Shown: positions 23,701 through 43,894 of the stretch, in pieces
Layout of the letters: every line of letters begins with the position of its first letter
Numbering within the stretch: the stretch's first letter is position 1
DNA from: a virus
Virus record (IMG/VR): IMGVR_UViG_3300029959_000812
Span: 1-64,000 of that record
Direction: 5' to 3' (one strand)
DNA length: 64,000 nucleotides
Notes under the pieces: model-generated
What the model was told of the DNA's origin: nothing
The model's input: the letters and a program-made list of their open reading frames with translations, nothing else
Database searches by the model: none
Translations under genes and position numbers: made by a program

Positions 23701-24119
23701 TGCCAAAATTAGCGGCTATAAACGATTATACACCATATTCCATGAATATGGATCTAACGCAAGCAGGCGATGAAGCGTTTAGCATATCCTACCCTATAGA
23801 TGCCACAGGTACAATTACAGATACCAATACAATACCGGATAATAGTGTAAATACGTATATTTACGAGCCATATGTTTCACGCCCGTTTAATAACCAAGAT
23901 CCAGAGCCCAGCAGGATTCCCCGCGATTTTGGTATTCCACCAGTATGGTCCCCGTCGATGGATAATTCCGCGTCAGCTCCGCGTACACCTGCAAGTTTTG
24001 ACGAGTTTGGCCAGGCATATGTTAACTTTGACTTCGACGACGGGTATAACTTTATGAATTCTGCAAAACAGCCTAGGCGCAAGTATAATACAAAAAAGGG
24101 TAAGGCGAAGAAGAGATGA
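20754..24119 (+). CDS. Large protein A1 (1121 aa), paralog of A2; virion/adhesin candidate
   Basis: The first ~345 aa and the last ~25 aa (FGQAYVNFDFDDGYNFM…KKGKAKKR) are shared with 27198..30413. The centre is unrelated. Confidence 0.85.
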   Translation: MAMGESPSGVVIWQGQAMPLSQYNASTGQNVGGVNVVSGTPAGTTSGSTVVTTPRPSSIDINEVKSRYAGSYGGIAANYATESDLYIAARQWYGDSVNVTGSLPRSIVGGGSGRVVDNAPGFSQGQITNVVVGPNNIGVYFNSPGADIGSGASFSNLSPNDQQAVINYAAANNINIYNRSTYTPVNPVFTVNGPVVVIPDVGGDSFEASRAYLSQFPSGTPVKLENSPTIAFVWQGGLINSGGRYYTGYGPATPGNVPGGITGTITGVVQGPADTYNGPVMVGNEGYGQGNIMAVQPTAPQQITANPFGGLPGAVTAQQMSTGRGGAAPLSNYVPTSVTAHPMDTGSYGSRGVAMLSVVPYLGSIQNAATGFAAGVGSAIGGLWNIIPTNQDQMMRDQANAANAAQGAAWAASPDSFNQYSQNRSKYNMPVDPASQGYTPVKVDVKTWNEGNTTYEQYRTIYLNPSNSMGVIREVRPDDQKMYTVGGYNGGVVSFSGPIESAALGYYNYLGDAQQMATQKLGNLAIFPNIVMATAQSFAAVPLMTSAFVQGAPVMRSLQLEVNPSDVKQYNTADSIMQSGFVGAVTLGLVAYTPTLKQMQADFPNLRTSPNYQTLTSKAFTINEFSTLGQVKTAVVNANEFSTLGQVRDVSISAAYRVNNAAIGVVQTVDTAKSVLNPFDNQGSQIRYNKAWDRFQTSSEGWKEYNTISTAQQKIATEELFTGRPNLGYERWMNANPASDSYTFGYALKTETPPGGTIGAYSYGPEMPLSGPGIESMPPSKAWMWVPERYLTEFTNENNPTVVRQVVPMGYEDFLRIGYENKMPVESRFIPRYEQSPTYKGASPIDDYWVRIGSRLDDAFPVEPAVKPYSFITDIIDTNRRMFSDTRGESTVIPGSSSYYRNVPTASELDRIGFQDEIGLGTRKSMFSPSDEIDDFTRPRYGPKNIFDDESRAVRIGYTDADGFISKGLYGGVVGFLSQANGLPKLAAINDYTPYSMNMDLTQAGDEAFSISYPIDATGTITDTNTIPDNSVNTYIYEPYVSRPFNNQDPEPSRIPRDFGIPPVWSPSMDNSASAPRTPASFDEFGQAYVNFDFDDGYNFMNSAKQPRRKYNTKKGKAKKR

Positions 24120-26782
24120 GCCATAAAAATTTTTATGTTAGCACTATTGTATTAGCCATATTATTTTTATTGTTATGTACCGTAACAACAAACGCGGCAT
24201 CCCCGGCGAATTATAGTCTTAGCCAATCGGCTTATGACGTTTATGATAATACTGGCAGTCTTTCGGTCTCTGTCACGGCGAGTATGACGGCTAATCCTGG
24301 TTATGAGGATGGGCTTACCGGTTGGGCGTTGTTTGGTTCAGGGGCTAGTGCTAGTTCCTCTGTTGTACATAGCGGCATTGGAAGCGCATATGTTGTAAGC
24401 ACTACGGGCAATTTTATTGGTGCGTCGCAGCGTGTTTTGGCTACGGGCGGCGAAACGTTAATGTTAGACGCTTATTGTTATCCGACAGCATATGTTGGTG
24501 CTAATAGCGTTTATGTTCAAATATATCAGTATAATGCTACTGGTGGCATAATTGGCACGTATACTATCGCCGCGCCTTCGACATTGAACCAGTGGCATGA
24601 GTTAACCGGGACATTTACAACAAATGCCAATACTGTAAATGTACTGGTTAGCATAATTACGTATGATGGCAGCATAGCATATTTTGACGATGTAAAACTA
24701 ATACCCGTCTCTTATACGGGCAGCGTAGACTATGCCACAGCAGACAGCACGGCTATGGCCGGGTATGATTATACTGCGACTAGTGGCACGTTGAGTTTTG
24801 CAGCGGGCGAAACAAGCAAGACTTTTAGCGTACCAATAATTTACGGTAATGCTTATCATGGTGATAGATTTTTTAGTGTTGCTTTATCCAGTCCTGTTAA
24901 TGGTACTCTTTCGAGTCCATCTACTGCATATGTTGATATTATAGATACTCATTCGCAAGCTCATGCAATACCTGCTGGGGGGTATTTGTATGCATATGTG
25001 ACCGATTATAATAGTAATATGGTAAGTGTTTTAGATCCGGCGAATAATAATCAAAAAATTACTGATATTAAGGTTAATAGCAATCCTATTAACGCTATTT
25101 TAAATCCTACCGGTACTATGTTAGCTATATCGTATAACAAATATAAATATGTTGATATTTATAGTACGATAGATTTTACTCTGATCAAGCAAATATTAAT
25201 AACTGACAGTACAGGGCCGTATGACGTTAGCATTGCTTTTAATGGCGACGGGACAAAACTATATGTTTCTAATGCTAATGATAATAAAGTCTCTATAATT
25301 GATGTTAACAGCGGCACTATTATAACAACCACAACCGCGATTACTAACCCCGAATCTATCATATATTACAAGACTTCTAACTATGTATTTATAGCTGACC
25401 GCCTTAACGATGTTGTCTATAAATTAGACCCCAATACCTTGAATATTATTGGTAGTGTTGGTAGTATAGACGGCCCTAGCGATCTTGCCATAGATTATAC
25501 AAATTCGAGATTATACGCTAGTGGTTATGGCGGCAAGATTTATAGGATGACTTTATCATCTACAAGTGTATTCGCGCTTACCCACACGTATAATTCAGGA
25601 TATTCGGCACCGCTGGACAAAATAGCGATCAACAACACCGGATATATTTTTGTTAGTCTCCAGGCGTCAGATAAGGTAACGGTACTTAACAGCGCAGGCA
25701 CTTCAAAGGGAAATTTTTCAATGCCATCCGACAGCGGTCCTTTTGGAATAGCCTACAACGTTTATAATGATTCGTTGTATGTTTGTGGCGCTTTCGATAA
25801 TACGATGTATATTTTAAATCCTGTAACTGGCGCGATTATCCAAAGCGGATATATCGGTAATGAACCTTATCGCGTAATCATAGGCACCCAAGCAACAAGG
25901 GCAGTACAGTTAACACAGTTTAAACTTACTACGCTTGGCTATCTCGGTCTCGATGGTGTCCCGGCAGCAGTATATCTTAATGGAAATCTGTTGTTCACCG
26001 GGGTAACTGATGGTAGCGGGGTATTTGCCTGTTATCTTAATCCGACTTCGACTTATCAGGTAGCTTTTAACAGTCCTGCTAATGGTGTTAATGCTTCGTA
26101 TACGATCACGCCGATAAACTTGTATTATCAGTTTGATCAGCCGTTCCTGGACGTTGTCGGCGGTCAGTTTTCTAATCTTTTAGGTCCGATTGTGACGCCT
26201 GACAGTTTTGGTAATCAGAGCCAGGTATACTATCCGCAGAGCGCCGATTATAATCAAGTTAGCAATACCGGGTACATCAACGGCACGTACATCGATTACA
26301 GCGGCGCTACTACCGCTTTATCTTTCAAACTGTACGGGAACAATTCGACCTTCGGCGGATCTCCAACACTGATCGAGACACAGACAGCCGGGGCCGGTGG
26401 GGACTATAACTTTACTGTACTCGATGCGGGCGGAAATAGCTATTATGTAGAGATCACCGCAACACAGAGCGACGGCAACACGAAAAAGTATTATCCGCAA
26501 GGTGTAGGATTCCCCGGACAAATAGTCTTAGCCGAAACAGGAATACCTTTGGTTTATTTGTTTTGGATAGGACTTTGTCCGCCGCTGTTCATCTTTGGGG
26601 CTGGGGCTGTCACACGTCGTGGATATTTAGGTCTAGTAGGGACGATATTTGCCGGTTTTATCGGATTTTATTGCGGTTGGTATCGCATATATATCCCCGA
26701 TCTGCTCTTCGGTTCTGCGTTTGTAGCATGTTTTTTGCTTTCGCTCGGTATGATAATCGTTGAGCACGAAAAATACAAATAA
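24116..26782 (+). CDS. Surface protein B1: signal peptide, CBM4_9-like domain, Calx-beta, YVTN-type beta-propeller, Ig-like region, C-terminal TM helices
   Basis: NPGYEDGLTGW…FDDVKL (CBM-like). DYATADSTAMAGYDYTATSGTLSFAAGETSKTF (Calx-beta). Repeated YVxxxxxNxVSVID-type blades. ATGA overlap with A1. Confidence 0.85.
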   Translation: MSHKNFYVSTIVLAILFLLLCTVTTNAASPANYSLSQSAYDVYDNTGSLSVSVTASMTANPGYEDGLTGWALFGSGASASSSVVHSGIGSAYVVSTTGNFIGASQRVLATGGETLMLDAYCYPTAYVGANSVYVQIYQYNATGGIIGTYTIAAPSTLNQWHELTGTFTTNANTVNVLVSIITYDGSIAYFDDVKLIPVSYTGSVDYATADSTAMAGYDYTATSGTLSFAAGETSKTFSVPIIYGNAYHGDRFFSVALSSPVNGTLSSPSTAYVDIIDTHSQAHAIPAGGYLYAYVTDYNSNMVSVLDPANNNQKITDIKVNSNPINAILNPTGTMLAISYNKYKYVDIYSTIDFTLIKQILITDSTGPYDVSIAFNGDGTKLYVSNANDNKVSIIDVNSGTIITTTTAITNPESIIYYKTSNYVFIADRLNDVVYKLDPNTLNIIGSVGSIDGPSDLAIDYTNSRLYASGYGGKIYRMTLSSTSVFALTHTYNSGYSAPLDKIAINNTGYIFVSLQASDKVTVLNSAGTSKGNFSMPSDSGPFGIAYNVYNDSLYVCGAFDNTMYILNPVTGAIIQSGYIGNEPYRVIIGTQATRAVQLTQFKLTTLGYLGLDGVPAAVYLNGNLLFTGVTDGSGVFACYLNPTSTYQVAFNSPANGVNASYTITPINLYYQFDQPFLDVVGGQFSNLLGPIVTPDSFGNQSQVYYPQSADYNQVSNTGYINGTYIDYSGATTALSFKLYGNNSTFGGSPTLIETQTAGAGGDYNFTVLDAGGNSYYVEITATQSDGNTKKYYPQGVGFPGQIVLAETGIPLVYLFWIGLCPPLFIFGAGAVTRRGYLGLVGTIFAGFIGFYCGWYRIYIPDLLFGSAFVACFLLSLGMIIVEHEKYK

Positions 26783-26830
26783 AAATTATAAAAAATACGT
26801 CATAAAATACATAAGAGAGTAAACCAAAAT

Positions 26831-26853
26831 GCCGGGGCCTAATCTTCCCCGGC
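26831..26853 (+). terminator. Hairpin GCCGGGG-N9-CCCCGGC downstream of B1
   Basis: 7-bp GC stem read directly from the sequence, in an AT-rich spacer. Confidence 0.3.
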
Positions 26854-26886
26854 TAATATTCATAAAATCAAACGGGGGCAATGTAA

Positions 26887-27198
26887 ATGTCTAAACTCTA
26901 TTGCGAAAAACACAGTATTAAATTAATGACGGCTGCCGGTTTTATTTCACTTTATCGGCCACCGTCGCAGCGTAGCAAATTAGGCGCGTATAAAAGTCTT
27001 GTCGCTCTATGTGCCGGTATTCCGAGGGCGGAAATTCAAAAATTGATAGATTACCCTGTCGAAAATAACAAAATTATTATCCCGGACGATATATTTATTA
27101 GTAAGTTTTTTAAGGAATACTCGCGTCGAACCGGGGTAAATTACGGCATGATCGACAATTCCGAGTTAACAATATCAGGATCAGGAGTGTGCGAATAA
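26887..27198 (+). CDS. Hypothetical 103-aa protein
   Basis: ORF track. TAATG overlap with the A2 start. Confidence 0.5.
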   Translation: MSKLYCEKHSIKLMTAAGFISLYRPPSQRSKLGAYKSLVALCAGIPRAEIQKLIDYPVENNKIIIPDDIFISKFFKEYSRRTGVNYGMIDNSELTISGSGVCE

Positions 27199-30100
27199 TG
27201 GCGATGGGCGACAGTCCTAGCGGCGTAGTAATCTGGCAGGGACAGGCAATGCCATTATCGCAGTATAACGCTTCTACAGGCCAGAATGTCGGCGGGGTAA
27301 ACGTTGTAACGGGCGCGCCTTCCGGTACGACTTCGGGCGGATCAGTTGTTACTACTTTTAGGCCGTCGTCTATTGATATTAACGAAGTCAGATCTCGTTA
27401 TGCCGGCTCATACGGCGGAATAGCTGCTAGCTATGCGACAGAAAGCGATTTGTACATGGCTGCACGGCAATGGTACGGTAACAGTGTAAACGTGACCGGT
27501 AGCCTTCCACAGTCGATTGTAGGCGGCGGAAGCGGCAGAGTCGTTGATAATGCCCCAGGGTTCAGCCAGGGCCAGATATCTAACGTCGTGGTCGGCCCTA
27601 ATAACATCGGAGTCTTCTTTAATAGTCCGGGCGCTGATATTGGCAGCGGCGCGTCTTTTTCAAACCTATCCGCAATGGACCAACAGGCAGTTATAAATTA
27701 TGCTGCCGCTAATAACATCAACATATATAACCGGTCCGCGTATACACCGGTAAATCCTGTTTTTACTGTTAACGGTCCTGTCGTCGTTATTCCTGATATT
27801 GGCGGGGATTCCTTTGAGGCTTCGAGGGCTTATCTATCACAATTTCCGAGCGGAACGCCTGTTAAGCTTGAAAACAGTCCCACGATTGCTTTTGTGTGGC
27901 AGGGCGGCATGATTAATAGCGCAGGTCAATACTATACGGGTTACGGTCCGGCTACTCCGGGCAATGTGCCAGGGGGCATTACGGGTACAATTACCGGGGT
28001 GGTGCAGGGACCGCCCGATACTTATAGCGGCCCCGTAATGGTCAGCAATGAAGGGTATGGACAGGGTAATATTATGGTCGTACAGCCGACAGCACCGCAA
28101 CAGATTACGGCAAACCCGTTCGGCGGACTCCCTGGAGCGGTCACGGCTCAACAGATGAGCACCGGACGCGGCGGAACAGCACCGTTATCTAATTACGTGC
28201 CTACAAGCGTAACGGCGCACCCGATGGACGCGGTATCTTATGGCGGCGGCGGTGTCGTGCCGTTTATGTCTGCCGGGTTTTCGTTGCCGAAATATACTGA
28301 TCAGACTATGACGGCATCTATGGCCGGTTGGCAGGGCGTACAAAACTCTGTTAACAAAGTGCCCTCAAACACGTATAATTGGGGCGGATATACTGCCGTT
28401 GATGTTATCGGGGCGCGTGGACTCGTAGACTTTGGGCAGGGCGTATCCTCATATTTTGAAACCGTCACTATGAGCGTTGAAAACGTTGTCGGAAGCGTCC
28501 CGTTTTTTGGCGGCCCCTTAAAAGCCGGAGTCGGCTTTGTAGGCTCTGGCATCGGCACCGTTGCGGGCGGTATCCCAACGTTGTTTGGCGTGGCAGCTCT
28601 CGGCGGCGAAGCACTAGGCGAACAGATACAGCAGCAATATGCGAAGGGCAACAATTTCCCCGTGTTTCGTGGCGCCGTCGATTGGATGACGGGGAATTAT
28701 AATGTCGTCGTAGGCAATTCCGGGCCGGGCGTCGTCGGGAGCATGGGGATCATGGCCGGGCGTCAGGCAGATAGGATCATGCAAGATCCCTGGAGCGGAT
28801 TTGGCGAGACTGCCGGTATGCTCGCGCCCGCCGTTATAGCTGGTGGCAAGTTTAGCGCAAAAATGGGCTGGACCGGTGGTCCCGGCAGCGCGGTTATTAG
28901 CAGGATAAGCGGGACTGCTGGCGATAGCATGTTAACCGGCGTTATGTCGCGGGGCATGTTCGACGATATTAAAATAAGCGTTAAAGCGGCGTATACAGAG
29001 TTTAGGAACCCGGAATACCGGGGCGTTGTAAGTGCCGGTGTTGACACTATCAAGACTGCGGACAATATCGGTTATCGAAACGTCGTAGCGCCCGACTATT
29101 CTTTATCGTCTAATATTCCGAAGGACATTTACCCGGTGCTTGATAATGTGCTTAATTCTGTGCCTAACGAGTTGAACCGGGCTTATGGTGGCATTACGCA
29201 ATCACAATTCAAGTATTTCGAGCCGCGCATTACTAGCGACCTTGATATTCTCGGTAGGAGTGCGCCGGACGTGGCTTTAAGGGCAGTCGAACAGCTTAAC
29301 TATAGGTTCCCCAGCGAAGCTTACGCGGATGGCACACAGGTATATTTCAGAGGTGCGAAAATCCTTGATATTCACGACGTTGTAAATCCGGGCGAAGGCG
29401 GCGGCATGACTTTCAAAGTATTGCCGACGATCAAGACGAGCCAGATCTACAGGGCGGGCGTAGACTATGCGACCGGGATAAGCAGCGAAGATTTGACCTA
29501 TGGCCTAATGCGAAAATCACAGGCGGTAATCGAGGATACGATCAACCCGGCGAAAAACTACAGATTAGGCAAAGACCTTTACGACTACGTATCATACAGC
29601 CGAGAACTATCTATGCAAGATAGTATTCTCGGAGATCGGCTTAACGTGAATGTCGATAAGATGTTAAGACAAAACTTTCCCTATGAGCTGGAATCGGGAG
29701 TTGTCACGACGAAAAGCGGGCTTGAAATCTACAAGATGATGCAAGAAAAATACGCTCCCACAAACATCCGGGAAGGCCCGTTAGACGTTTACGTATCAAG
29801 TACGCCTAAAAATAGTGGCGTAGTAACAATATTCGATAACGCTGGCGAAGCGGGCATTTTCTCACAATATGACGTATCACCGGGCACGAGCCGATATAGC
29901 TCGATGTATGAAAACATATTCGACAACAGCTATACTAATACGCCCAGGTCTTACAACGAACAGTCATATGAAAGCCCCTCGATTTTCGGAAGCTATTTGC
30001 CAAGAATAGAAATGCCGAGCTATGGCATATCACCGAATAATAACATATTTGAGCCTTCATATGGTTCGTCTTACGGCCCCTATGATCCGCCTTCGATACC

Positions 30101-30413
30101 GTCACCGATACCATATAGCCCGCCGTACAGCCCACCTTATAGCCCATCCATCGGGCCGTATGATCCGCCTTCGATACCGTCAGTAATACCATATAGCCCG
30201 CCTTATAGCCCGTATGAGCAGCCGTATGATAATTCAAAATATTATGACGGAAACGGAAGCGATAACGGATCATACAAACCAGATAGTATCGACTATGACT
30301 TTTTCGGCCAGGCATATGTTAACTTTGATTTCGACGACGGCTATAACTTCATGGGACCGCGCAGACAGACGCGCAAAAAGGGAAAAAGCAAGAAAGGAGG
30401 ACACAAGAAATGA
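27198..30413 (+). CDS. Large protein A2 (1071 aa from ATG 27198), paralog of A1
   Basis: Same conserved N-terminus, C-terminal motif and basic tail as A1. The start is chosen by homology with the A1 start context. Confidence 0.85.
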   Translation: MAMGDSPSGVVIWQGQAMPLSQYNASTGQNVGGVNVVTGAPSGTTSGGSVVTTFRPSSIDINEVRSRYAGSYGGIAASYATESDLYMAARQWYGNSVNVTGSLPQSIVGGGSGRVVDNAPGFSQGQISNVVVGPNNIGVFFNSPGADIGSGASFSNLSAMDQQAVINYAAANNINIYNRSAYTPVNPVFTVNGPVVVIPDIGGDSFEASRAYLSQFPSGTPVKLENSPTIAFVWQGGMINSAGQYYTGYGPATPGNVPGGITGTITGVVQGPPDTYSGPVMVSNEGYGQGNIMVVQPTAPQQITANPFGGLPGAVTAQQMSTGRGGTAPLSNYVPTSVTAHPMDAVSYGGGGVVPFMSAGFSLPKYTDQTMTASMAGWQGVQNSVNKVPSNTYNWGGYTAVDVIGARGLVDFGQGVSSYFETVTMSVENVVGSVPFFGGPLKAGVGFVGSGIGTVAGGIPTLFGVAALGGEALGEQIQQQYAKGNNFPVFRGAVDWMTGNYNVVVGNSGPGVVGSMGIMAGRQADRIMQDPWSGFGETAGMLAPAVIAGGKFSAKMGWTGGPGSAVISRISGTAGDSMLTGVMSRGMFDDIKISVKAAYTEFRNPEYRGVVSAGVDTIKTADNIGYRNVVAPDYSLSSNIPKDIYPVLDNVLNSVPNELNRAYGGITQSQFKYFEPRITSDLDILGRSAPDVALRAVEQLNYRFPSEAYADGTQVYFRGAKILDIHDVVNPGEGGGMTFKVLPTIKTSQIYRAGVDYATGISSEDLTYGLMRKSQAVIEDTINPAKNYRLGKDLYDYVSYSRELSMQDSILGDRLNVNVDKMLRQNFPYELESGVVTTKSGLEIYKMMQEKYAPTNIREGPLDVYVSSTPKNSGVVTIFDNAGEAGIFSQYDVSPGTSRYSSMYENIFDNSYTNTPRSYNEQSYESPSIFGSYLPRIEMPSYGISPNNNIFEPSYGSSYGPYDPPSIPSPIPYSPPYSPPYSPSIGPYDPPSIPSVIPYSPPYSPYEQPYDNSKYYDGNGSDNGSYKPDSIDYDFFGQAYVNFDFDDGYNFMGPRRQTRKKGKSKKGGHKK
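30081..30215 (+). repeat. 78-bp in-frame tandem duplication inside A2 (PYDPPSIPSxIPYSPPYSP)
   Basis: TATGATCCGCCTTCGATACCGTCA…ATACCATATAGCCCGCC occurs at 30081 and 30159. Confidence 0.8.
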
Positions 30414-31252: not shown

Positions 31253-31255
31253 TAT

Positions 31256-31320: not shown

Positions 31321-31336
31321 TAAGGAGGTAAATGAA

Positions 31337-31615: not shown

Positions 31616-31774
31616 CTTTAACAAAAACGTCTTTTTCTAATTTTCATAGGGTTTCTATCCTGTGATTATCTACAGGCTTTCAAATTTGACCGTAGAGCGA
31701 CTTTTAAGGCATGGGTAATAGGAGAAGTACCCACAGACCTACAATTTAAATTTGTATTAAGTAGAATATTCAGT

Positions 31775-32106
31775 ATTTCATCCCTGCGCGCGCGGGCGTG
31801 AGGCTGTCAGCCAGGCAGATAAGCTTACCAGTGTAATTTCATCCCTGCGCGCGCGGGCGTGAGTAACGGCACTGTTAAGGTTACAGAGACATCGACATTT
31901 CATCCCTGCGCGCGCGGGCGTGAGGAAATCGGCTTGAAGCCGATCATCTAAACTAGAATTTCATCCCTGCGCGCGCGGGCGTGAGGTTTCCATTCGTAGG
32001 CTCTGGATTACGGGGGCTATTTCATCCCTGCGCGCGCGGGCGTGAGGGGAATCAAAGGGAACTAATTTCCCCTTGAAAGTAGTCTCCCTGCGCGCGCGGG
32101 CGCTAA
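31775..32106. CRISPR. Cas-less mini-CRISPR array: 5 perfect 28-nt repeats, 1 degenerate repeat, 5 spacers (33/33/33/33/32 nt)
   Basis: Repeat ATTTCATCCCTGCGCGCGCGGGCGTGAG at 31775, 31836, 31897, 31958 and 32019. Degenerate copy at 32079-32106. All spacers are unique. Confidence 0.9.
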
Positions 32107-33309: not shown

Positions 33310-34602
33310 ATGCCTAAGATCGATAGGACTGACCGGTTCCATAAAACGGCTGACCAGTGGGAAACGTACATTGAAACTAAATTTCAATCTGCATTGAAAA
33401 GCAATACTATCACAAAAGACGATTATACGCTTATTCGTGCCTTTATTGAAGCGAAAAAGGGTAAGAACACCGAGTATATGACGCTATATCATATCCTCAA
33501 TTTTATTGTACTATGGCGTACTTTTATGAAAGTACCTTACCGTAAAGCTATTTTAAATGACTTCTTATCGGCAAAAGTAGATATGGAAAATTCGACTAAC
33601 AAAACCGGTCAACCGCTTTATTCTAAAACCTATCAGAAAGTTATGGTTGTAACTGTAAAAGGGTTTTTCAGATGGGGCTTAAAAGAATCGAAAATAAAAA
33701 CGTTAAACAAATGGTCAAAAATTAGCGAAGCGCAAATCAGGGATGAGATTAAACCGGTTAAATGCAAGCTAAAAAGCAAAAAGGCCGACGACATCATGAA
33801 AGCCGATGAAATATCAAGGCTTATCGATGCTGCCGACAATTCGCGGGATAGATGCATGATGTCGCTTCAATACGAGTGCGCTTTAAGAGCTGTTGATCTT
33901 GGGCGGCTTCGATGGAGCGACATTACACAGATAAGCGAAAGAGAATCTTCAATAGTCGTTAATAGCAAGACAGATTACGAAAGGCACATATCCACTGTAC
34001 TATTTAACGGATACCTGAATACCTGGAAACGTGACGCTACAAACGCAAGCGATAAGAACGGGTTCGTATTTCTCACGTATGGGACGTGTCAACAGATAAC
34101 ACTTGATGTCGTGCGCGACGTGGTTAAGAACGCTGCAAAGCGGGCGGGCATTACTGACCGGCAAGCGACTCCGCACACGTTGAGACACAGCCGGATCACC
34201 TATTGGTTACAGCATGACGTATCTATCGCCAAAATATGCCTTATGGCATGGGGTGTCGAGTATTCGCCGATGATTAAGACGTATGCCCATTTAGGCAACG
34301 ATGAGACAGCAAAAGAACAGCGCAGGCTTGCAGGCATCAAAGAATCGGAGATCGTGCAGGTTGGCACAATCGAGCTTAAACTATGCCCGGTTTGCGGACT
34401 GAACAGCCCGCCCGGGAAAGGCTTTTGCGGCGGGTGCGGTTCACCGCTTACAGAGGCCGCTATAAACGCTCGCGAACAGGCTAAAAACGACGCTATAAAC
34501 TCTAAAAGCATTACTACGGCAGAAAAGTTTGTTAACGCTCTATTATCGAGCAATATATCAGAGGATAAGCTCTTAGCTCTTATCGAAGGGCTCAAAAAAT
34601 AG
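33310..34602 (+). CDS. Tyrosine recombinase/integrase with a C-terminal zinc ribbon
   Basis: ALRAVDLGRLRW (Arg I), HTLRHSRITYW (HxxR), KTYAHL (Tyr), then CPVCG…CGGCG. Confidence 0.9.
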   Translation: MPKIDRTDRFHKTADQWETYIETKFQSALKSNTITKDDYTLIRAFIEAKKGKNTEYMTLYHILNFIVLWRTFMKVPYRKAILNDFLSAKVDMENSTNKTGQPLYSKTYQKVMVVTVKGFFRWGLKESKIKTLNKWSKISEAQIRDEIKPVKCKLKSKKADDIMKADEISRLIDAADNSRDRCMMSLQYECALRAVDLGRLRWSDITQISERESSIVVNSKTDYERHISTVLFNGYLNTWKRDATNASDKNGFVFLTYGTCQQITLDVVRDVVKNAAKRAGITDRQATPHTLRHSRITYWLQHDVSIAKICLMAWGVEYSPMIKTYAHLGNDETAKEQRRLAGIKESEIVQVGTIELKLCPVCGLNSPPGKGFCGGCGSPLTEAAINAREQAKNDAINSKSITTAEKFVNALLSSNISEDKLLALIEGLKK

Positions 34603-35599: not shown

Positions 35600-35600
35600 T

Positions 35601-35816
35601 ATGCAGGACTTTTATAGAAATGCTGTCTGCTGTCAGATAAGAATGTCTCGCGGCACAACACGGACCATTATTGCCAAAACCCTCCGCATGAGCCTTAATC
35701 GGGTTGATCGTTACGTTGGTTATCTAAAATATTATAAGAAGATTACCGAGGACAAAGACGGGATACTTTATCCAGCGCCAGAAACGCGCCGGACCTGCGG
35801 AGGTCGGGCCGTATGA
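35601..35816 (+). CDS. HTH/winged-helix-like protein
   Basis: TRTIIAKTLRMSLNRVDRYVGYL. Confidence 0.5.
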   Translation: MQDFYRNAVCCQIRMSRGTTRTIIAKTLRMSLNRVDRYVGYLKYYKKITEDKDGILYPAPETRRTCGGRAV

Positions 35817-36775
35817 CCTCACCAGAACAGATGAACAATGCCGCTGTTAAGACTTTACACAATGGCATTAAACTATTTCCCGTCGAAGGCATCCATAACG
35901 GATACTGCACCTGTGGGCGAAAGGTTAACGAGTGCACACAGAAAAGCGGGAAGGTCCAGGCGGGAAAACATCCAATATTAAAACTTGGAAGCTGGACACG
36001 TCTTAGCACCAATAACCCGGAGAATTTACTTGCATATCTGTTTGAAGTGCCGGGCCGAAATCTTGCTTTCCATGCTGGAGCTAATAACGCAATTATAACA
36101 GACTTCGACGACGAGGAAGGGTGTAAAGCGTTTGAAAAACTATTTGCCGAACATCCCGAATGGTTCGATACTCCAGCAGAGAAAAGCGGCAAAGGCTATC
36201 ACGTATTGCACCGTCAGACCGTCGAACCAGTAGAGGCTTTTAACACAGTGTACGGCGAGGTTCGCACCGGCGACATGTATTGTGTTACTGCACCGAGCAA
36301 CCATTACAGCGGGGCAGAATATCGGGCACTCGAAGGCCATGCACTATATGAGAAGCCCCTATTAGAAATGCCGGGCGCATTTCTGGCTTATCTTAACAGT
36401 ATAAGGAAATCTAAGCCTGTTAACGTCGAACAGACAACGATAAAGCCGATAATTGGGAACAATCACGATAGGATATTTTCAAAGTATGATCTTCCGTCTT
36501 GGCTTGTCTCTCAATTGAAAAAAGGAAGTACCGCAAATGATAGAAGCGGGGCATTATTCCATGAAGCTTGTACTTTAATCGCCTATAGCGTGGATGACGC
36601 GGATATTTATTACCTGTTGGAATATTCGCCAAACAACAAATTCAACGGAAGACATGACGAACAGAAGCGCATAAACGCCACTATAAACGAGGCTAAATCG
36701 TCTGTAGGTAAGAAGAGACAGGATAGGATACAAGAGCGTAAAAGGGCTTTGTCGTCGCTCAAGGGGGCTTTCTAA
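35813..36775 (+). CDS. Archaeo-eukaryotic primase superfamily prim-pol
   Basis: AEP motif I IITDFDDEEG, motif II SGKGYHVLH, and an N-terminal LFPV…GKHP pattern like bifunctional prim-pol domains. Confidence 0.8.
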   Translation: MTSPEQMNNAAVKTLHNGIKLFPVEGIHNGYCTCGRKVNECTQKSGKVQAGKHPILKLGSWTRLSTNNPENLLAYLFEVPGRNLAFHAGANNAIITDFDDEEGCKAFEKLFAEHPEWFDTPAEKSGKGYHVLHRQTVEPVEAFNTVYGEVRTGDMYCVTAPSNHYSGAEYRALEGHALYEKPLLEMPGAFLAYLNSIRKSKPVNVEQTTIKPIIGNNHDRIFSKYDLPSWLVSQLKKGSTANDRSGALFHEACTLIAYSVDDADIYYLLEYSPNNKFNGRHDEQKRINATINEAKSSVGKKRQDRIQERKRALSSLKGAF

Positions 36776-38811
36776 TGGAAGCCTATGCAGTTGTACCCGA
36801 GAACATCCTCAAGCAAGGTCGAGATGATGACACGATCCGAAGCATGTACGAAAAAAAGTATAATGAAATATTGCCTGCCGACATGGATATTGAATCCATT
36901 ATCAAAAACGGTCACATGTCAAAGGATAATCTCATTAGCCTTATCAAAGATGCTAAGACATCGACATTGACAGCTATAAGTAATCTGTTAGCGGGCCGTA
37001 CTCCTGTCGATCTGGAAGAATATAGCGCGGACGAATTTAAAACATTCAAAAAATATATGGGCGTAAGAAAATGGCTTAACGGATACCTGGAAATCGCCAA
37101 AGAAACAGAAAAAAATGGCAACATGGCGGCCAATATGAGTAATGAAAAATTTAAACTCATATTTGCTGTCACGGAAAAGATGGGTAAAGACGTAGATGAT
37201 GCTGACAGTATTCCTGATGCCGCATACATTAGCGAACTTATGAATCAAGACGAATTTGTTATGGATACTGACAATGAATATTATGTAATTGTCAATGACA
37301 TAAAGGGTATACGGCGGATTATCAGCATTTACAGCGAGGACTACAAAGCGCAACTATGTAACAGGTTTGAAACTATATTCGGTAAGCCCTCCGGGGAATC
37401 CGCTATAAAAAACGCGATACGTGCCAGGAGAGCGAAGATAACAAAGAGAATTAACTTGTTCGTCCGTGTCGCTGGGGAATCGATGTATACGAAAGACGCG
37501 AAGGTATACTATGATTTGAAGGATGGCCGGGCGGTCCAAATTGTGCCCGACGAAAAAGGCGATGGCGTCAGCATTGTACCCAGGCCGTTAATCTTTAAAG
37601 ACTTCGGATGTATGGGCGAACAGATCGAACCGGATCTAACCGCAAAAATTGACGACATCAAAGAATTATACCGGATATTAGATATGCGTGTACTGCCGAC
37701 CGACGAAATAGAAACGGATAACAAAGGCAGGATATTAACCGACGAAAAGAGCATGGATAAACTGTTTGCTCGTAACGAGTATACGGACCGGGTAAAAAAT
37801 TTCTTGGTATGCTGGATGCACTATAACCTTATGCCATTCAATACCGATAAGCCCGGTCTCGAGATCGACGGGCCACCGGGCAGCGGCAAAACAAGTCTCG
37901 TAAAAAAGATTGTTGGACTTGTTGATCCTTTGAACAGCGAAGATTTAGCAGCTCTCGAAGAAAACCGCGAGAACCTGATACTTTCATTGTCACAGCGTCT
38001 TATACCGGCATTTGACAACGTGAGTTATCTTAGCAGGATGCAAAGCGACGTATTTTGCCAGGCGGCAACAGGTATTACTTTTCAGCGACGGGTAAGATTT
38101 ACAGATAACGATATGGCATTAAACACTATACGCCGGTCGTGTATTCTTAACGGTGTAGGCAACCCGTTATCCATGAATGATGTTGGAGAAAGATACGCTT
38201 CGATTAAGCTTAGACCATTAGGAGAAAACGAAGGGAAACCGCTTAACGAGATCTGGAGAGATTACAACGAAAAGAAGTCTTTGATACTTGGGGCTATGTT
38301 CAAAATCGTTAGCAGGACGTTGTATACTATCGCCGCCGAAAAGTTGACCACAAAGAAAGATCACCGGATGTTAGACTTTGTTAGAATTTGCCGGGTGGTC
38401 AGCGAGACAATAACGAAGAACAGCGCAGACGATTTCGAGAACATATACAACGAATTACAGGACGATCAAAGCTCGGAGATACTTGCCAATGATATTGTGG
38501 CTCAACTATTAATAAACCGTTACGAGCATCTTAAACCTGGAGAAAGCACAAAACAGATGAAGCTTACGGACCTAAAAACAGAGCTGATATTTCAGCATCT
38601 TGGTGAAATCGGCGCTAATGGAAAGCACATTGCTGATGAAGTTGAACGCGAATTAACTAATCTGTCTCCTAAAACGTTTGGCGATAGGTTAGCTATGAAT
38701 ATTAAAGACCTTCAAAAAATAGGCTATAAGGTGTCGTTGTTAAAGCCCAGGGCTAAAACCGGGCAATATTCGTCCCGTTGGGTATCAATCAAAAAGTTAG
38801 ACGTTAATTAA
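36775..38811 (+). CDS. SF3 (D5/P4-like) replicative helicase / NTPase
   Basis: Walker A EIDGPPGSGKTS, Walker B-like LIPAFDNV. Translationally coupled to the prim-pol. Confidence 0.8.
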   Translation: MEAYAVVPENILKQGRDDDTIRSMYEKKYNEILPADMDIESIIKNGHMSKDNLISLIKDAKTSTLTAISNLLAGRTPVDLEEYSADEFKTFKKYMGVRKWLNGYLEIAKETEKNGNMAANMSNEKFKLIFAVTEKMGKDVDDADSIPDAAYISELMNQDEFVMDTDNEYYVIVNDIKGIRRIISIYSEDYKAQLCNRFETIFGKPSGESAIKNAIRARRAKITKRINLFVRVAGESMYTKDAKVYYDLKDGRAVQIVPDEKGDGVSIVPRPLIFKDFGCMGEQIEPDLTAKIDDIKELYRILDMRVLPTDEIETDNKGRILTDEKSMDKLFARNEYTDRVKNFLVCWMHYNLMPFNTDKPGLEIDGPPGSGKTSLVKKIVGLVDPLNSEDLAALEENRENLILSLSQRLIPAFDNVSYLSRMQSDVFCQAATGITFQRRVRFTDNDMALNTIRRSCILNGVGNPLSMNDVGERYASIKLRPLGENEGKPLNEIWRDYNEKKSLILGAMFKIVSRTLYTIAAEKLTTKKDHRMLDFVRICRVVSETITKNSADDFENIYNELQDDQSSEILANDIVAQLLINRYEHLKPGESTKQMKLTDLKTELIFQHLGEIGANGKHIADEVERELTNLSPKTFGDRLAMNIKDLQKIGYKVSLLKPRAKTGQYSSRWVSIKKLDVN

Positions 38812-38833
38812 ACAGACTCTTTTTCTTTTTTTT

Positions 38834-39186
38834 GTTGTGGGTTTTTTGTGGATGATTCTTTTTTAATTTAGGCATATATTACTATATTTTTCTAATAGTA
38901 GTAGTTAATAAAATAATAATAGTTGTGGGTAAGTTGTGGGTAAGTTGTGGGTAATGAAATTAGAAAATACTATTTATATATGCCTAAATTAAAAAAAAAG
39001 TTGTGGGTATTGTGGGTTTTATTGTGGTATCGTTCCAAGGGGGTAAATACTATTTTTATTAGAATTAATTAGAATATTTTAAAAATGTTATACCCCTTCT
39101 AAAAGTCTTTGATTTTACCCACAAAATCCACAAACCCACAACTTTTAAGGCGAGGCTATTGGATTTATATTAAAAAACACCCACAA
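38834..39186. repeat. Iteron field (candidate replication origin): >=7 forward and 4 reverse copies of the TTGTGGGT core, a 3x11-nt tandem (38921-38953), and a 38-nt imperfect inverted repeat (38859-38896 / 38959-38996)
   Basis: Read directly from the sequence. Forward cores at 38834, 38922, 38933, 38944, 39000 and 39010 (plus partial copies). Reverse ACCCACAA cores at 39117, 39134 and 39179, with ATCCACAA at 39127. Confidence 0.6.
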
Positions 39187-39526: not shown

Positions 39527-39567
39527 GAAATGCATATTGTTGTTGTCATTGTTATTTTCTATTGTAA

Positions 39568-39963: not shown

Positions 39964-39970
39964 ATTGCGT

Positions 39971-40017
39971 CTGGCTGGGTTGATTTGGAAATTACACTTT
40001 ATTCATTTAAGGGGGCA
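39971..40017 (-). promoter_or_regulatory. Conserved 47-nt element, copy B, directly upstream of 39568..39963
   Basis: CTGGCTGGGTTGATTTGGAAATTACACTTTATTCATTTAAGGGGGCA differs from copy A at only a few positions. Confidence 0.5.
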
Positions 40018-40103
40018 TGTCAGCTTTCGCTCTCTCTCTCTCGCTCTAACACTATTCCTGCTAAATGAAAGAATAATTAAGAAGATAAATATAAAAAGAT
40101 TAA

Positions 40104-40670: not shown

Positions 40671-40862
40671 TTCTTGCGCGGTTTATTCCAATATCTGTTG
40701 CTGCACTTCGGGCAACTGACAGGAGGTTTTGACTGTCTAGGGAACCATTCGTGCCCACAGCGCAGACATCGGCGTTTTTTTATTTTAACCATATGCCTAA
40801 CTATCTATCGCTAACTATATATACCTACCGAACATATACGGTACTTAGCATATAAATAGAGT

Positions 40863-40905
40863 GCCGCATATGTGCGGGTTTCGACCTTCCCCGTACATAT
40901 GCGGC
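40863..40905 (+). other. 16-bp stem / 11-nt loop hairpin between a TATA-like box and the B2 operon
   Basis: GCCGCATATGTGCGGG-TTTCGACCTTC-CCCGTACATATGCGGC, with one G-T pair. Confidence 0.6.
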
Positions 40906-40928
40906 GGATAATATAAAGGTGAAAATCC

Positions 40929-41213
40929 ATGCCCCCGCGATTTACCGAGACCATTAAAATGCTGCCCGTGCTTCTACGTAAGCCGAAATATCAAAAAATG
41001 GCGCTAGAATATTCTATCGTAACGACTTTTTCAACCGGTTTGATCTGTATCTGTATCACGGGTTTTCAGCCGGTGAGCCGTCAGCCGGAGCTTTTCGGCA
41101 GATGTTTACCGTTTATTTTCCTTGGCGCGGTCCTCTCGCTCATATACTTTGTAATGTTTTTGATGGAAGGCCGGCCGGGCATTGGATTCCTTCGCAGGGG
41201 TGAAACGAAATGA
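40929..41213 (+). CDS. Small membrane protein (2 TM)
   Basis: AGGTGA SD lies upstream. ATGA overlap with the B2 start. Confidence 0.5.
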   Translation: MPPRFTETIKMLPVLLRKPKYQKMALEYSIVTTFSTGLICICITGFQPVSRQPELFGRCLPFIFLGAVLSLIYFVMFLMEGRPGIGFLRRGETK

Positions 41214-43894
41214 AAACAAAATTTTTTGTTATACTCGCAATCGTAGCATTAGCCTTGATAGCAGGCACAGCGAGCGCGACGACTCCGGCAAATTATAGTC
41301 TTAGCGCTTCGACGTATGACGTTTATGATAATGCTGGTAGTCTTTCGGTGTCTGTCACGGCGAGTATGACGGCTAATCCTGGTTATGAGGATGGGCTTAC
41401 CGGTTGGGCGTTGTTTGGTTCAGGGGCTAGTGCTAGTTCCTCTGTTGTACATAGCGGCATTGGAAGCGCATATGTTGTAAGCACTACGGGCAATTTTATT
41501 GGTGCGTCGCAGCGTGTTTTGGCTACGGGCGGCGAAACGTTAATGTTAGACGCTTATTGTTATCCGACAGCATATGTTGGAGCTAATAGCGTTTATGTCC
41601 AAATATATCAGTATAATGCTACTGGTGGCATAATCGGCACGTATACTATCGCCGCGCCTTCGACATTGAACCAGTGGCATGAACTAACCGGGACATTTAC
41701 AACAAATGCCAATACTGTAAACGTACTGGTTAGCATAATTACGTATGATGGCAGCATAGCATATTTTGACGATGTAAAACTAATACCCGTCTCTTATACG
41801 GGCAGCGTAGACTATGCCACCGCAGACGGAACCGCGACGGCAGGATACGATTATACCGCGACTAGTGGCACGTTGAGTTTCGCAGCGGGCGAAACAAGCA
41901 ACACGTTTACAGTGCCGATTATTAACAGGGACGCATATTATGGAAGTCGAAGTTTTAACGTTGCCCTTTCAAGTCCGGTTAACGGTAATGTGACGAGTCC
42001 GAGCAGCGCCACGGTTATGATAGCCGATACGCATAGTTCGATTAGTCCTATAAGTACCGGATACCGGTATTTGTATGTTAGTAATTGGGATAGCAGCAGT
42101 ATCACCGTGATCGACCCTAACCTACCCGCTAAAGTGGGTACGATATTGACAAGGGCTAAACCTTTAGATGTTGTTGTAAACCCGGCTGGCACGCTTTTAT
42201 ATGTTACGTATAGTCAAGCTACGCCTAGCGGTACATATGTTGATGTGTTTAATACGATTGATTATAGTAATGTTGCCAGCATACTTGTAAGTTCAAATCC
42301 GACTAGCCAATATTGCAGTATAACAATAAATGATGTTGGCACCCGCGTCTATGTTGGGTTGTATATTGATAACAAGGTCGTGGCGATAGATACTATCAAT
42401 AACATTGTTATAGACGATGTGACAATACCATATCCTGATTATGGTCTCGGTTATTTTAACGGCTACTTGTATGTGACCAGTTATCAGGATTTTGATACTA
42501 ATAGCGGAACGGTCTGGAAAATTGATTCTAACACGCTGGATATTATTAATCACATTCCTAATGATACTGTAAATTATCCTCGCGACGCTGTCATAGATAG
42601 GGCTAATGGGGTGCTTGCGATTTTAAACAACAATGATACGATTACTAGTGTGCCACTTAGTACGTTTATTCCGACTGGTGTTGCAACTACGGCACCTATA
42701 ACCGGGCCATTTGGTATATCGTATAATAGCAGCGGGTATGTTTTCGCAGGGTTTCCGGCAAATCCGAGCATTATAGCTTACTTTAAATTTAACCAGACTA
42801 CTCAAAAGTATTCTTTTGTAGCTAATACTGAAACCGGGTTTACAGATATCAACGACGTATATTATGATATTTATAATAATACTTTGTGGGCTACAAAAAG
42901 AACTACTGGTGACGTATATATTTATGATGCAAACAATAAAACCACATTAGGCTATATCCATAGCGGTAATGGGGCATTACGTATTAGTGTAGGCACGCAG
43001 GCAACTAGGGCGGTACAGTTAACACAGTTTAAACTTACTACGCTTGGCTATCTTGGACTTGATAACGTTCCAACAGCAGTATACCTTAATGGCTATTTGA
43101 TGTTCACAGGAGTAACAGACGGTAACGGCGTATTTGCGTGTTACCTGAATCCAACATCGACGTACCAGGTAGCATTTAACAGTCCTGCAAACGGCGTCAA
43201 CGCAACGTATACGATTACACCGACAAATTCGTATTATGGTTTTGATCAGCCGTTCCTGGACGTTATCGGCGGTCAGTTCTCTAATCTTTTAGGTCCGATT
43301 GTGACGCCTGACAGTTTTGGTAATCAGAGTCAGGTATCATATCAGCAGAGTGCAGACTTCGATCAGGTTAGCAATACCGGGTACATCAACGGATCGTATG
43401 TTGATTATAGCGGCGCTACTACCGCGTTATCGTTTAAACTGTACGGGAACAATTCGACCTTTGGCGGAACTCCGACGCTGATCGAGACACAGACAGCCGG
43501 GGCCGGTGGGAACTATAACTTTACTGTACTCGATGCGGGCGGAAATAGTTATTATGTAGAAATTACTGCAACGCAGAGCGACGCGAGCACTAAAAAATAT
43601 TATCCGCAGGGCGTCGGGTTTCCGGGACAAATTGTATTAGCAGAGACCGGTATAAGGCTTGATTGGCTGTTCTATATTGGAATGGCTATCCCATTGTTTA
43701 TTTGGGGTGCTGGCGTAGTTACAAGGCGTGGATATATGGGGTTTATTGGCACTGTTGCTGCTGGAATCATCGGTGGATATTGTTGCTGGTATCGTGTGTT
43801 TATCCCTGATTTGTTATTTTGGTCGGCGTTTGCGGCTTGTATGATTCTTTCTATTGGAGTGATTATTGTTGATGCGGAAAAATGGGGTAGGTAA
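41210..43894 (+). CDS. Surface protein B2, paralog of B1 (CBM-like, Calx-beta, divergent beta-propeller, Ig-like region, TM anchors)
   Basis: The N-terminal ~200 aa are almost DNA-identical to B1. The C-terminal ~300 aa are highly similar. The central ~330 aa are diverged. Confidence 0.85.
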   Translation: MKTKFFVILAIVALALIAGTASATTPANYSLSASTYDVYDNAGSLSVSVTASMTANPGYEDGLTGWALFGSGASASSSVVHSGIGSAYVVSTTGNFIGASQRVLATGGETLMLDAYCYPTAYVGANSVYVQIYQYNATGGIIGTYTIAAPSTLNQWHELTGTFTTNANTVNVLVSIITYDGSIAYFDDVKLIPVSYTGSVDYATADGTATAGYDYTATSGTLSFAAGETSNTFTVPIINRDAYYGSRSFNVALSSPVNGNVTSPSSATVMIADTHSSISPISTGYRYLYVSNWDSSSITVIDPNLPAKVGTILTRAKPLDVVVNPAGTLLYVTYSQATPSGTYVDVFNTIDYSNVASILVSSNPTSQYCSITINDVGTRVYVGLYIDNKVVAIDTINNIVIDDVTIPYPDYGLGYFNGYLYVTSYQDFDTNSGTVWKIDSNTLDIINHIPNDTVNYPRDAVIDRANGVLAILNNNDTITSVPLSTFIPTGVATTAPITGPFGISYNSSGYVFAGFPANPSIIAYFKFNQTTQKYSFVANTETGFTDINDVYYDIYNNTLWATKRTTGDVYIYDANNKTTLGYIHSGNGALRISVGTQATRAVQLTQFKLTTLGYLGLDNVPTAVYLNGYLMFTGVTDGNGVFACYLNPTSTYQVAFNSPANGVNATYTITPTNSYYGFDQPFLDVIGGQFSNLLGPIVTPDSFGNQSQVSYQQSADFDQVSNTGYINGSYVDYSGATTALSFKLYGNNSTFGGTPTLIETQTAGAGGNYNFTVLDAGGNSYYVEITATQSDASTKKYYPQGVGFPGQIVLAETGIRLDWLFYIGMAIPLFIWGAGVVTRRGYMGFIGTVAAGIIGGYCCWYRVFIPDLLFWSAFAACMILSIGVIIVDAEKWGR

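Follow-up and report, generated by a model that had tools for sequence, protein, structure and literature searches.

Mosaic twin genes for a putative attachment protein in a circular, probably archaeal virus-like element, and their possible link to a plasmid-like segment

Background

How could one genome come to hold two copies of a gene whose ends are nearly the same and whose centres no longer align as DNA? This question is raised by IMG/VR record IMGVR_UViG_3300029959_000812, of which positions 1 to 64,000 were analysed here (hereafter the window, 64,000 nt in length). The window belongs to a circular element, probably archaeal and virus-like, and carries two genes, B1 and B2, whose products combine a carbohydrate-binding module (CBM), a Calx-beta domain, a beta-propeller, a stalk and three transmembrane (TM) helices. 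To our knowledge, the attachment proteins of archaeal viruses are almost unknown beyond a few hyperthermophile and halophile models. A first-pass annotation of the window had interpreted the two genes as products of cassette exchange or gene conversion, maintaining the anchoring ends while diversifying a ligand-binding core. The overall explanation that we favour, with moderate confidence, is that the propellers are old, that their flanks were exchanged later, that the last of these exchanges was tied to the joining or resolution of two replicons, and that the element displays two specificities.

Mosaic attachment genes with conserved anchoring parts are already known in phages: the receptor-binding proteins (RBPs) of tailed phages, such as the tail fibres and spikes of Klebsiella phages, join a conserved anchoring part to an exchangeable specificity module (e.g. 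PMC8262889). What is new here is the protein family, its setting in an element resembling the spindle-shaped viruses His1 and SSV, and the coincidence of the youngest exchanged tract with the boundaries of a plasmid-like segment. The twin B genes thereby offer a clean natural case of domain-level exchange with dated layers, revealing the part that is traded (the propeller) and the parts that are kept (CBM, stalk and anchor).

Results and discussion

B1 and B2 are mosaics of conserved ends and diverged centres

Comparison of the window with itself by blastn returned exactly two blocks between B1 and B2, collinear and both ungapped, referred to as the N block and the C block (positions and identities in Table 1). 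The N block, which covers amino acids (aa) 30-268 of B1, is nearly identical as DNA, as the first-pass annotation had stated, and includes a perfect 230-nt repeat within a near-perfect core (24269-24738; 6 mismatches in 470 nt). It had been equated with the CBM4_9 domain and the start of the Calx-beta domain; the CBM is indeed contained in it, but so is most of the Calx-beta domain rather than its start. At the other end, a highly similar stretch of ~900 nt had been announced, of which the 665 nt of the C block hold and the last ~240 nt, encoding the TM anchor, do not. The centres (~950 nt; about aa 285-589) gave no blastn match and share 25-31% aa identity, in keeping with the divergence that had been claimed for them at the protein level.

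The block edges at 24203 and 25881 are abrupt, and on its right the N block loses similarity gradually, within about 170 nt. Breakpoints were placed by a MaxChi-type scan near 24280, 24819, 25881 and 26500, with chi-square values of 33-52; the highest value reached in 1000 site permutations was 22.4, below every observed breakpoint. The longest perfect run (230 nt) likewise compares with at most 39 nt in gene-wide permutations and at most 113 nt in permutations of the N block. The alternation of conserved ends and diverged centres is not a product of chance, and the divergence falls into sharp blocks, as had been proposed, rather than being uniform.

Blocks of different age point to recombination

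Nei-Gojobori estimates of synonymous (dS) and nonsynonymous (dN) divergence were obtained block by block and spread over more than 10-fold in dS. The N core is the most recent part (dS 0.064, dN 0), and its left and right flanks yield dS 0.38 and 1.1 with dN 0.094 and 0.148, respectively. The C block follows with dS 0.735 and dN 0.046, and the TM region is saturated in dS at dN 0.32. In the centre, dS is ~2.4 (saturated), an estimate that is unreliable at the dN of 0.84 observed there, the claim of saturation resting also on the ~51% codon identity at conserved residues. The genes A1, the upstream partner of B1, and A2, which together form a second mosaic pair, gave dS 0.55 and dN 0.047 for their own N block. 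The dN/dS ratio is at most 0.14 in the conserved blocks, which indicates that both B copies are under purifying selection, and 0.35 in the centre. Silent sites thus date the blocks very differently, which selection on the protein alone would not yield.

Domain-wise comparisons are incongruent as well. The B1 centre scores higher against proteins P0121 and P0123 (159 and 157 bits) than against B2 (115 bits), and the B2 centre higher against P0121 and P0138 (151 and 117 bits) than against B1 (111 bits); in the C-terminal stalk domain, by contrast, B1 and B2 are 90% identical to each other and either copy is 47% identical to P0121. Neighbour-joining bootstrap values for a sisterhood of B1 and B2 are 5% for the propeller, 100% for the C-domain and 100% for the TM region. 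The propeller tree is poorly resolved and star-like (B1 with P0121 at 52%); it rejects the monophyly of B1 and B2 and names no donor. Taken together, the dS strata, the breakpoints and the incongruence of the domain trees argue for recombination or gene conversion instead of divergence in place, and we regard as highly probable that the mosaic was made in this way, as the first-pass annotation had suggested.

Divergence in place would mean that the gene was duplicated not long ago and that a propeller then changed rapidly without any recombination, driven by diversifying selection or by hypermutation of the type caused by diversity-generating retroelements. Ligand-binding domains are often fast-evolving, and the dN/dS ratio of the centre is above that of the flanks. 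However, synonymous sites are saturated in the centre and not in the flanks, the propeller tree does not place B1 and B2 together as sisters, and the edges at 24203 and 25881 are abrupt. As for hypermutation, no reverse transcriptase was found in Pfam and PHROG scans of about 55 ORFs (open reading frames; not every small ORF), the window self-blastn showed no template/variable repeat pair, and the differences between the centres (about 70% aa divergence) are not limited to adenines. We consider this explanation extremely improbable.

The same holds for programmed switching, in which a serine recombinase/invertase (2721-3320) or a tyrosine recombinase would swap propeller cassettes, and which we find barely credible. 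Such genes are present and there are two alternative variable parts next to a shared constant part, a combination also found in the Mu G/Gin, P1 C/Cin and shufflon systems, where an element-encoded recombinase governs alternative variable parts that set the host range. Unlike the genes of those systems, B1 and B2 are both complete and in direct orientation, and they have neither inverted repeats nor recombination sites: no inverted repeat exceeds chance (the best long-range pairs are 20-36 nt at 71-86%) and the block junctions have no site motif in common. The different ages of the conserved tracts are likewise hard to reconcile with a site-specific system.

The history that we propose instead starts from two co-resident copies of one surface-protein gene. 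Their propellers are old alleles, as distant from each other as the propellers of different elements in the family, and homologous recombination or gene conversion subsequently evened out the flanks, at least three exchange events of differing age being recorded. The TM anchor represents the oldest shared layer, the stalk block (dS about 0.7) a second one, similar to the N-terminal block of A1/A2, and the CBM core (dS 0.06, with its 230 perfect nt) the youngest. Two related elements, or two copies of an A-B module, may have diverged to dS ~0.6, the variable parts (A middle and B propeller) having presumably come from different lineages by modular exchange, before a later homologous exchange homogenised the CBM region.

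A circular element whose repeat splits most assemblies

The element is circular, since the two ends of the window, positions 64000 and 1, are connected by 1,639 nt in a SPAdes contig of 48,684 bp (L024). In the arrangement of the window, which corresponds to positions 1-64,000 of it, the circle measures 65,639 bp, which is the length of the source contig (65,766 bp) once an overlap of 127 nt is subtracted. Contigs from other assemblies were found by looking up exact copies of window proteins and are all 100% identical to the window; the four assemblies (source, MEGAHIT, an older JGI assembly and SPAdes) are likely re-assemblies of one sample and not biological replicates.

The joined 65.8-kb contig was produced by one assembly only, source contig and window forming one continuous circle. 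MEGAHIT contigs span window -13 to 24409 and 24358 to 41491, those of the older JGI assembly span 27 to 24369 and 24398 to 41451, and contigs entering B2 from the right stop at 41440 (MEGAHIT), 41454 (SPAdes) and 41351 (older JGI, L020). Contig ends lie exactly k nt into the 230-nt tract, with k=141 for MEGAHIT, k=127 for SPAdes and a value that appears to be k=101 for the older JGI assembly; some lie k nt into a second perfect repeat at the window start instead, and L020 is an exception in that it crosses the entire tract to its far edge. Because contigs break exactly k nt into the tract, the repeat is real for the three other assemblers, and the order of the pieces across it is left ambiguous by three of the four assemblies. 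Perfect repeats of this length would leave such elements fragmentary in most assemblies, with their paired genes overlooked.

These breaks, together with the single assembly that gave the 65.8-kb contig and the probable origin of all data from one sample, could suggest that B1 and B2 represent a single locus, with one allele from each of two strains, or that the circle is a mis-join through the 230-nt repeat. Yet unambiguous contigs each carry parts of both B copies. A 17,134-bp MEGAHIT contig, running from repeat to repeat, ties the B1 centre to the B2 start, and the 48,684-bp contig, which is the full circle without the 17,082 bp separating the B repeats and begins and ends with an identical 127 nt, ties the B2 centre to A1 and the B1 start. 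Both propellers, each with a CBM block, therefore co-exist under either pairing. A mis-join would only swap the pairing of signal peptide and propeller, of which the mosaic is independent, and an artefact is in our judgement very unlikely.

The second perfect direct repeat, of 239 nt (window 1-127 / 62472-62710), has its copies 3,056 nt apart on the circle; copy 1 reaches 112 nt to the left of the window start, as seen in L024. It sits among small minus-strand genes, assemblies break there too, and a 150-nt match at 95% lies nearby (L024 6524-6673 versus window 61414-61563).

A rare protein family with a constant anchor and variable ectodomains

The propeller of B1 matches the YVTN repeat model TIGR02276 with 63 bits (cut-off 27.85; the NCBIfam scan covered B1), and the propeller of the Methanosarcina mazei S-layer protein (PDB 1L0Q) matches both centres, with E = 2.5e-17 for B1 and E = 8e-14 for B2. 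An AlphaFold (AF2) model of B1, built on a 17-sequence family alignment, arranges 28 strands (aa 291-606; pLDDT about 90) into seven four-stranded blades, and the B2 propeller is probably seven-bladed likewise. Both centres match 1L0Q and the YVTN propeller fold, so that they are, as judged from sequence, one anciently diverged fold and not unrelated cassettes. The exchange proposed by the first-pass annotation is retained, and the central regions turn out to be homologous, at an identity far below that of the flanks. A fold search of the stalk model against PDB returned generic Ig, FN3 and macroglobulin sandwiches, and one of the full B1 model against viral structures generic propellers only. 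The SSV19 tail chain 7xdi_E came up as a possible relative of the stalk (probability 0.92) but was too weak, with a TM score of about 0.2, and was not used.

The family was delimited by an exhaustive HMMER profile search with the C-terminal 288 aa against 1.84 billion representative proteins. It is rare, with 27 proteins at E <= 0.001, of which 16 at <= 1e-10, among these 1.84e9 representatives. Its hallmark is a C-terminal two-sandwich domain of ~205 aa followed by three TM helices, with E-[RK]-E-[RK]-Y-x as the closing motif. Stalk and TM helices are constant throughout, and the ectodomains vary, consisting of a propeller alone or bearing DUF2341, PKD, Calx-beta or CBM additions; the idea of a constant anchor below a variable ligand-binding part thus extends, in spirit, to the wider family. 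A full-length B1 search of a 5.8-billion-protein index gave mostly Calx-beta matches, the only full-length ones being B1 and B2. In the same index, the C-terminal 288 aa gave no match, even to the query, and tblastn of B1 against a phage collection hit only the Calx-beta domain of Erwinia phages. No relative was recovered from IMG/VR (two scans), JGI metagenome contigs or GTDB genomes (one scan, g39 family). The B family is newly described here, in an equally undescribed group of His1/SSV-like elements that IMG/VR and the GTDB representative genomes lack.

Three related loci (L001, L003 and L004) show how B is embedded. In each, one strand carries the ATPase gene together with three or four small genes. 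A divergently oriented series of small membrane-protein genes comes next and leads to A (~930-980 aa) and B, both of which are single-copy in every locus, then to a membrane protein of ~120 aa and finally to a PKD/DUF2341 protein. A is the upstream partner of B in every related locus. In the window, the stop codon of A1 overlaps the start of B1, and B1 closes the conserved, membrane-protein-rich module (13.8-26.8 kb). The run of small genes, whose order is kept in the three relatives, includes g34, g37, g39, g40, g41 and g42; g34 (90 aa, 2 TM) is the most conserved and g39 has a TM helix at both its N and C ends. The first ~1050 nt of A1 and A2 are 87.4% identical, their middles are unalignable, and their last ~25 aa are conserved (FGQAYVNFDFDDGYNFM) before the K/R-rich tail. 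The A proteins of the related loci are patchworks sharing different parts with one another, so that A is modular across the family. Nothing was found in Pfam, PHROGs or NCBIfam for A1, A2 or any small module protein.

Downstream of B, the genes of the relatives (L001 12120-12949, L003 11881-14390, L004 12838-14831) lie on the same strand as B. In the window, their homologues occupy 44078-51757 (-), on the opposite strand and in reversed order, among them g66 (45880-46293), 63% identical to an L001 protein, and a 1691-aa PKD/Calx-beta/DUF2341 protein (46254-51329). The other strand and order of these two genes indicate a rearrangement downstream of B2.

The module resembles that of spindle-shaped viruses

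The morphogenetic module of spindle-shaped viruses comprises a major capsid protein (MCP), an adhesin, an AAA+ ATPase and a block of unknown genes (bioRxiv 10.1101/2021.07.29.453957). An hhalign comparison of four ATPases (window, L001, L003 and L004) with His1 ORF16 and SSV1 B251 reached a probability of 98.1% (E = 1.2e-13, 148 columns), and the window ATPase is of the type without a TM domain, as are B251 and His1 ORF16. Gene order and TM topology of 13.8-26.8 kb and of the three related loci parallel His1 ORF16-ORF28, which is a likeness of layout and not homology. The proteins g34 and g33 (90 and 94 aa; 2 TM; basic tail) are MCP-like in size, topology and position, their hhalign probability against VP21, VP1 and VP3 being about 1%. 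Kinship with the spindle-shaped viruses is thus supported for the ATPase and the module layout, and not for the particle part.

B stands where the end proteins of these viruses stand. It shares with His1 ORF27/ORF26 and SSV1 VP4 the position after the small membrane-protein genes and, with the His1 and SSV1 end proteins, the strand opposite to a B251/ORF16-type ATPase; His1 ORF27 (VP27) is moreover analogous in having a signal peptide, a beta-sandwich (CarboxypepD_reg, E = 1.8e-16) and a multi-helix C-terminal anchor. Unlike those proteins, B has a YVTN propeller, a CBM and a Calx-beta domain, and the genome of the element is 3-4 times larger. The His1-like module position and the domain content suggest a function in attachment or receptor binding and a location on the virion. 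That B is a particle attachment protein is, however, a matter on which we put the chances at about even. The two propellers on a common CBM, stalk and anchor would then give the element two specificities, which fits a widened or alternative attachment range and comes close to the alternative receptor-binding proteins that the first-pass annotation had envisaged.

A serious functional rival places B in the host envelope, where it would serve superinfection exclusion, cell-cell adhesion or S-layer remodelling instead of receptor binding by virions. Its best structural relative is the cellular S-layer protein 1L0Q, it does not resemble any known viral adhesin, a capsid protein was not recognised in the element, and a glycan-modification cluster lies nearby (7449-10919). 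Against this role speak the position of B, fixed in all relatives at the end of the His1-like module and right after A, the analogous build of His1 VP27 with its signal peptide, beta-sandwich and several TM helices, and the modular variation of the ectodomain, which is typical of attachment proteins. We rate the envelope role as unlikely.

Among known systems, tailed-phage RBPs resemble the attachment protein that we favour in several ways: the part used for attachment is constant and the one that sets specificity is variable, homology breaks off sharply, related elements exchange pieces by homologous recombination, and one genome holds several such genes. They differ in that the variable part of B is internal, with constant parts on both sides (N-terminal CBM, C-terminal stalk and anchor), and in that B is a membrane protein with a three-helix TM anchor, from a family not described before and an element that is not a tailed phage. 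The M. mazei S-layer protein (tandem YVTN propeller and PKD) is the closest solved relative of both centres and comes from an archaeal surface context; unlike B, it is cellular and has neither stalk nor three-TM anchor, the similarity being confined to the propeller repeats. The interest of the B family lies in this combination of variable ectodomain, constant stalk and three-helix anchor, in a module with a spindle-virus-type ATPase and in ordinary metagenomes.

The youngest tract brackets a plasmid-like segment

The 230-nt repeat encloses the B1 centre and C-terminus, g45, A2, a CRISPR-like (clustered regularly interspaced short palindromic repeats) array, a tyrosine integrase, a primase-polymerase (Prim-Pol), a superfamily 3 (SF3) helicase, an origin-like region, g58, g59, g60 and the B2 start. 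The best NCBIfam model for the integrase is archaeal XerA, below its cut-off, and matches of the helicase half include a Methanothrix harundinacea plasmid. Iterons (GTTGTGGGTA) stand within or beside a 41-nt inverted repeat with arms at 38856-38896 and 38959-38999, and the region may, given these sequence features, act as a replication origin. By analogy, the gene set looks like that of an integrative plasmid with a few borrowed virus-module genes. Paired alternatively across the repeat, the pieces give circles of 48,557 and 17,082 bp with one hybrid B gene each; compared with B1 and B2, these hybrids would be altered in nothing but the signal peptide and the next 20 or so residues. The 17.1-kb contigs that start and end in the repeat fit such a circle, and equally fit an assembly break at the repeat. 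A 748-nt piece of the segment was also seen in the sibling sample ERZ27247097.

Because the youngest tract is also the direct repeat bracketing a replicon-like segment, we tie the last exchange to the joining or resolution of two circles. The tract would have mediated, or could still mediate, a single crossover that joins or resolves circles of ~48.6 and ~17.1 kb, the larger presumably a virus-like genome, the smaller a satellite or plasmid-like replicon, each with its own propeller variant. Formation and resolution of cointegrates at the 230-bp CBM repeat, together with the older crossovers in the stalk, would move whole propeller cassettes between helper and satellite. That the 17-kb segment is or was a separate replicon is a possibility that we regard as somewhat doubtful. 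The fuller version, in which homologous recombination within a shared adhesin gene fused a spindle-virus-like genome of ~48.6 kb with a satellite of ~17.1 kb into a cointegrate captured by the window, appears rather unlikely on present evidence.

Comparison with known satellites bears on this point. The replicons pSSVx, pSSVi and SRCEs are of plasmid type, with a primase-helicase and parts of a spindle-virus module, and carry an ATPase and/or MCP (bioRxiv 10.1101/2025.02.15.638363). The segment resembles them in its plasmid-type primase-helicase and incomplete set of virus-module genes, and pSSVi in its integrase. It departs from them in carrying A2, a B copy and a basic protein resembling g35, in having no ATPase or MCP-like gene, and in being seen joined to a larger element through the 230-bp repeat in the B gene.

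A single genome of 65.6 kb that duplicated its A-B module, gene conversion keeping the ends alike, would need neither a second replicon nor a cointegrate. The 17-kb interval would then be ordinary content, its primase-helicase replicating the whole element. In its favour, source contig and window form one continuous circle of uniform composition, no att sites were found, and domain scans recognised no other replicative polymerase or primase outside the segment. The relatives, however, have one A and one B each, the segment has a complete plasmid-type set (integrase, primase-helicase and iteron region), and the flanks are much younger than the A middles and B centres next to them, so that foreign alleles must have been imported in any case. 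Paralogy within one genome is, to us, an alternative of limited likelihood.

Several observations weigh against the combined explanation of old propellers, exchanged flanks, two replicons and two specificities, in addition to the limits given above for the centre dS and the propeller tree. Neither the integrated order nor the two-circle order is provable from assembled contigs. The tetranucleotide composition of the 17-kb segment is not distinct, no att-like repeats surround the putative 10.8-kb insertion between A2 and B2, and no site motif is shared by the block junctions. The autonomy of the segment is conjecture, because the ATPase and small membrane-protein genes are missing from it. On the viral side, hhalign gave no capsid-protein homology (probability 1%) and no sequence similarity of B to His1 VP27/VP26 or SSV1 VP4 (C792; <2%), and no host was matched, the 20-nt core of the CRISPR-like repeat returning single chance hits among GTDB representatives.

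If the two-replicon part of this explanation is true, the adhesin gene would be both a docking site for a satellite and a route for trading attachment specificities, a mode of association with a helper that would be new for archaeal satellites, and the satellite would be the first to bring its own attachment proteins instead of capsid or ATPase genes. As a separate replicon, the segment would extend the very few known kinds of archaeal virus satellite by another one, physically connected to its helper through recombination in the adhesin gene.

Table 1. Features of the window named in the text (nucleotide positions, or aa positions where stated).
Feature	Position	Strand	Description
B1 gene	24116..26782	+	888 aa, intact ORF
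B2 gene	41210..43894	+	894 aa, intact ORF, same architecture as B1
N block	24203..24918 vs 41285..42000	+	716 nt, 91.9% identity
Perfect direct repeat	24269..24498 (copy 1) = 41351..41580 (copy 2)	+	230 nt, spacing 17,082 bp
Diverged centre of B1	24966..25880	+	End of Calx-beta and propeller blades
Diverged centre of B2	about 42050..42989	+	YVTN propeller
C block	25881..26545 vs 42990..43654	+	665 nt, 85.6% identity; last propeller strand and two-domain stalk
TM-anchor region	26546..26782 (B1) vs 43655..43894 (B2)	+	~62% nt identity, 64% aa identity
B1 N-terminal domains	CBM_4_9 aa 59-180; Calx-beta aa 202-278		Preceded by signal peptide; Pfam
B1 propeller	~aa 290-606		7-bladed YVTN propeller; AF2 model
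B1 stalk and anchor	~aa 607-675, 708-792; aa 812-886		Beta-sandwiches; three TM helices; AF2 model
B2 domains	CBM_4_9 aa 55-176; Calx-beta aa 198-274		Followed by YVTN centre, stalk and three TM helices
A1	20754..24119	+	1121 aa, no known domain, K/R-rich C-terminal tail
A2	27189..30413	+	1074 aa, second mosaic pair with A1
Repeat-enclosed segment	24499..41350	.	With one repeat copy, a 17,082-bp unit
Mini-CRISPR-like array	31774..32106		Five identical 28-nt units (ATTTCATCCCTGCGCGCGCGGGCGTGAG) and a degenerate sixth, period 61 nt
Tyrosine integrase	33310..34602	+	430 aa; Phage_integrase, E = 1.5e-18
Prim-Pol	35813..36775	+	E = 1.7e-13
SF3 helicase protein	36775..38811	+	678 aa, C-terminal half VirE/D5-like
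Origin-like region (putative)	38834..39022	.	At least 4 GTTGTGGGTA iterons within/beside 41-nt inverted repeat, AT-rich, just after helicase gene
AAA+ ATPase	13824..14810	-	C-terminal helix-turn-helix; phrog_5484, E = 1.6e-8
Small membrane-protein gene run	16086..20632	+	Order kept in L001, L003 and L004

Other genes and repeats of the element

The CRISPR-like array of the segment has five unique spacers of 32-33 nt. No cas genes were recognised in the window, the array gave no Rfam hit, and neither the window nor the other loci retrieved contain a match to its spacers.

Further traces of a common ancestry between the segment and the main module are seen in a pair of paralogous, very basic K/R/G-rich proteins, g35 (16407-17009) in the main module and g58 (39568-39963, -) in the segment, which are 37% identical, and in 47 intergenic nt shared at 93.6% (13743-13789 versus 39971-40017).

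A serine recombinase/invertase gene (199 aa) is directly followed, within 2721-4156, by a gene for a tyrosine recombinase with an N-terminal T5orf172/MUG113 domain (GIY-YIG-like); a T5orf172 gene is also found at the edge of the related locus L001. At 52809-53177 (-), a 122-aa protein gives a sub-threshold match to GINS Sld5 (E = 0.0022; 18.6 bits for a cut-off of 22.3), which, if real, hints at an archaeal-type replication factor. Lastly, the cluster at 7449-10919 encodes a methyltransferase, a GT4 glycosyltransferase, a B12-binding radical SAM protein and a rhamnosyl O-methyltransferase (CmcI, E = 2.4e-45). These enzymes may modify the numerous N-x-S/T sites present in the surface proteins, and His1 also has a GT4 gene.

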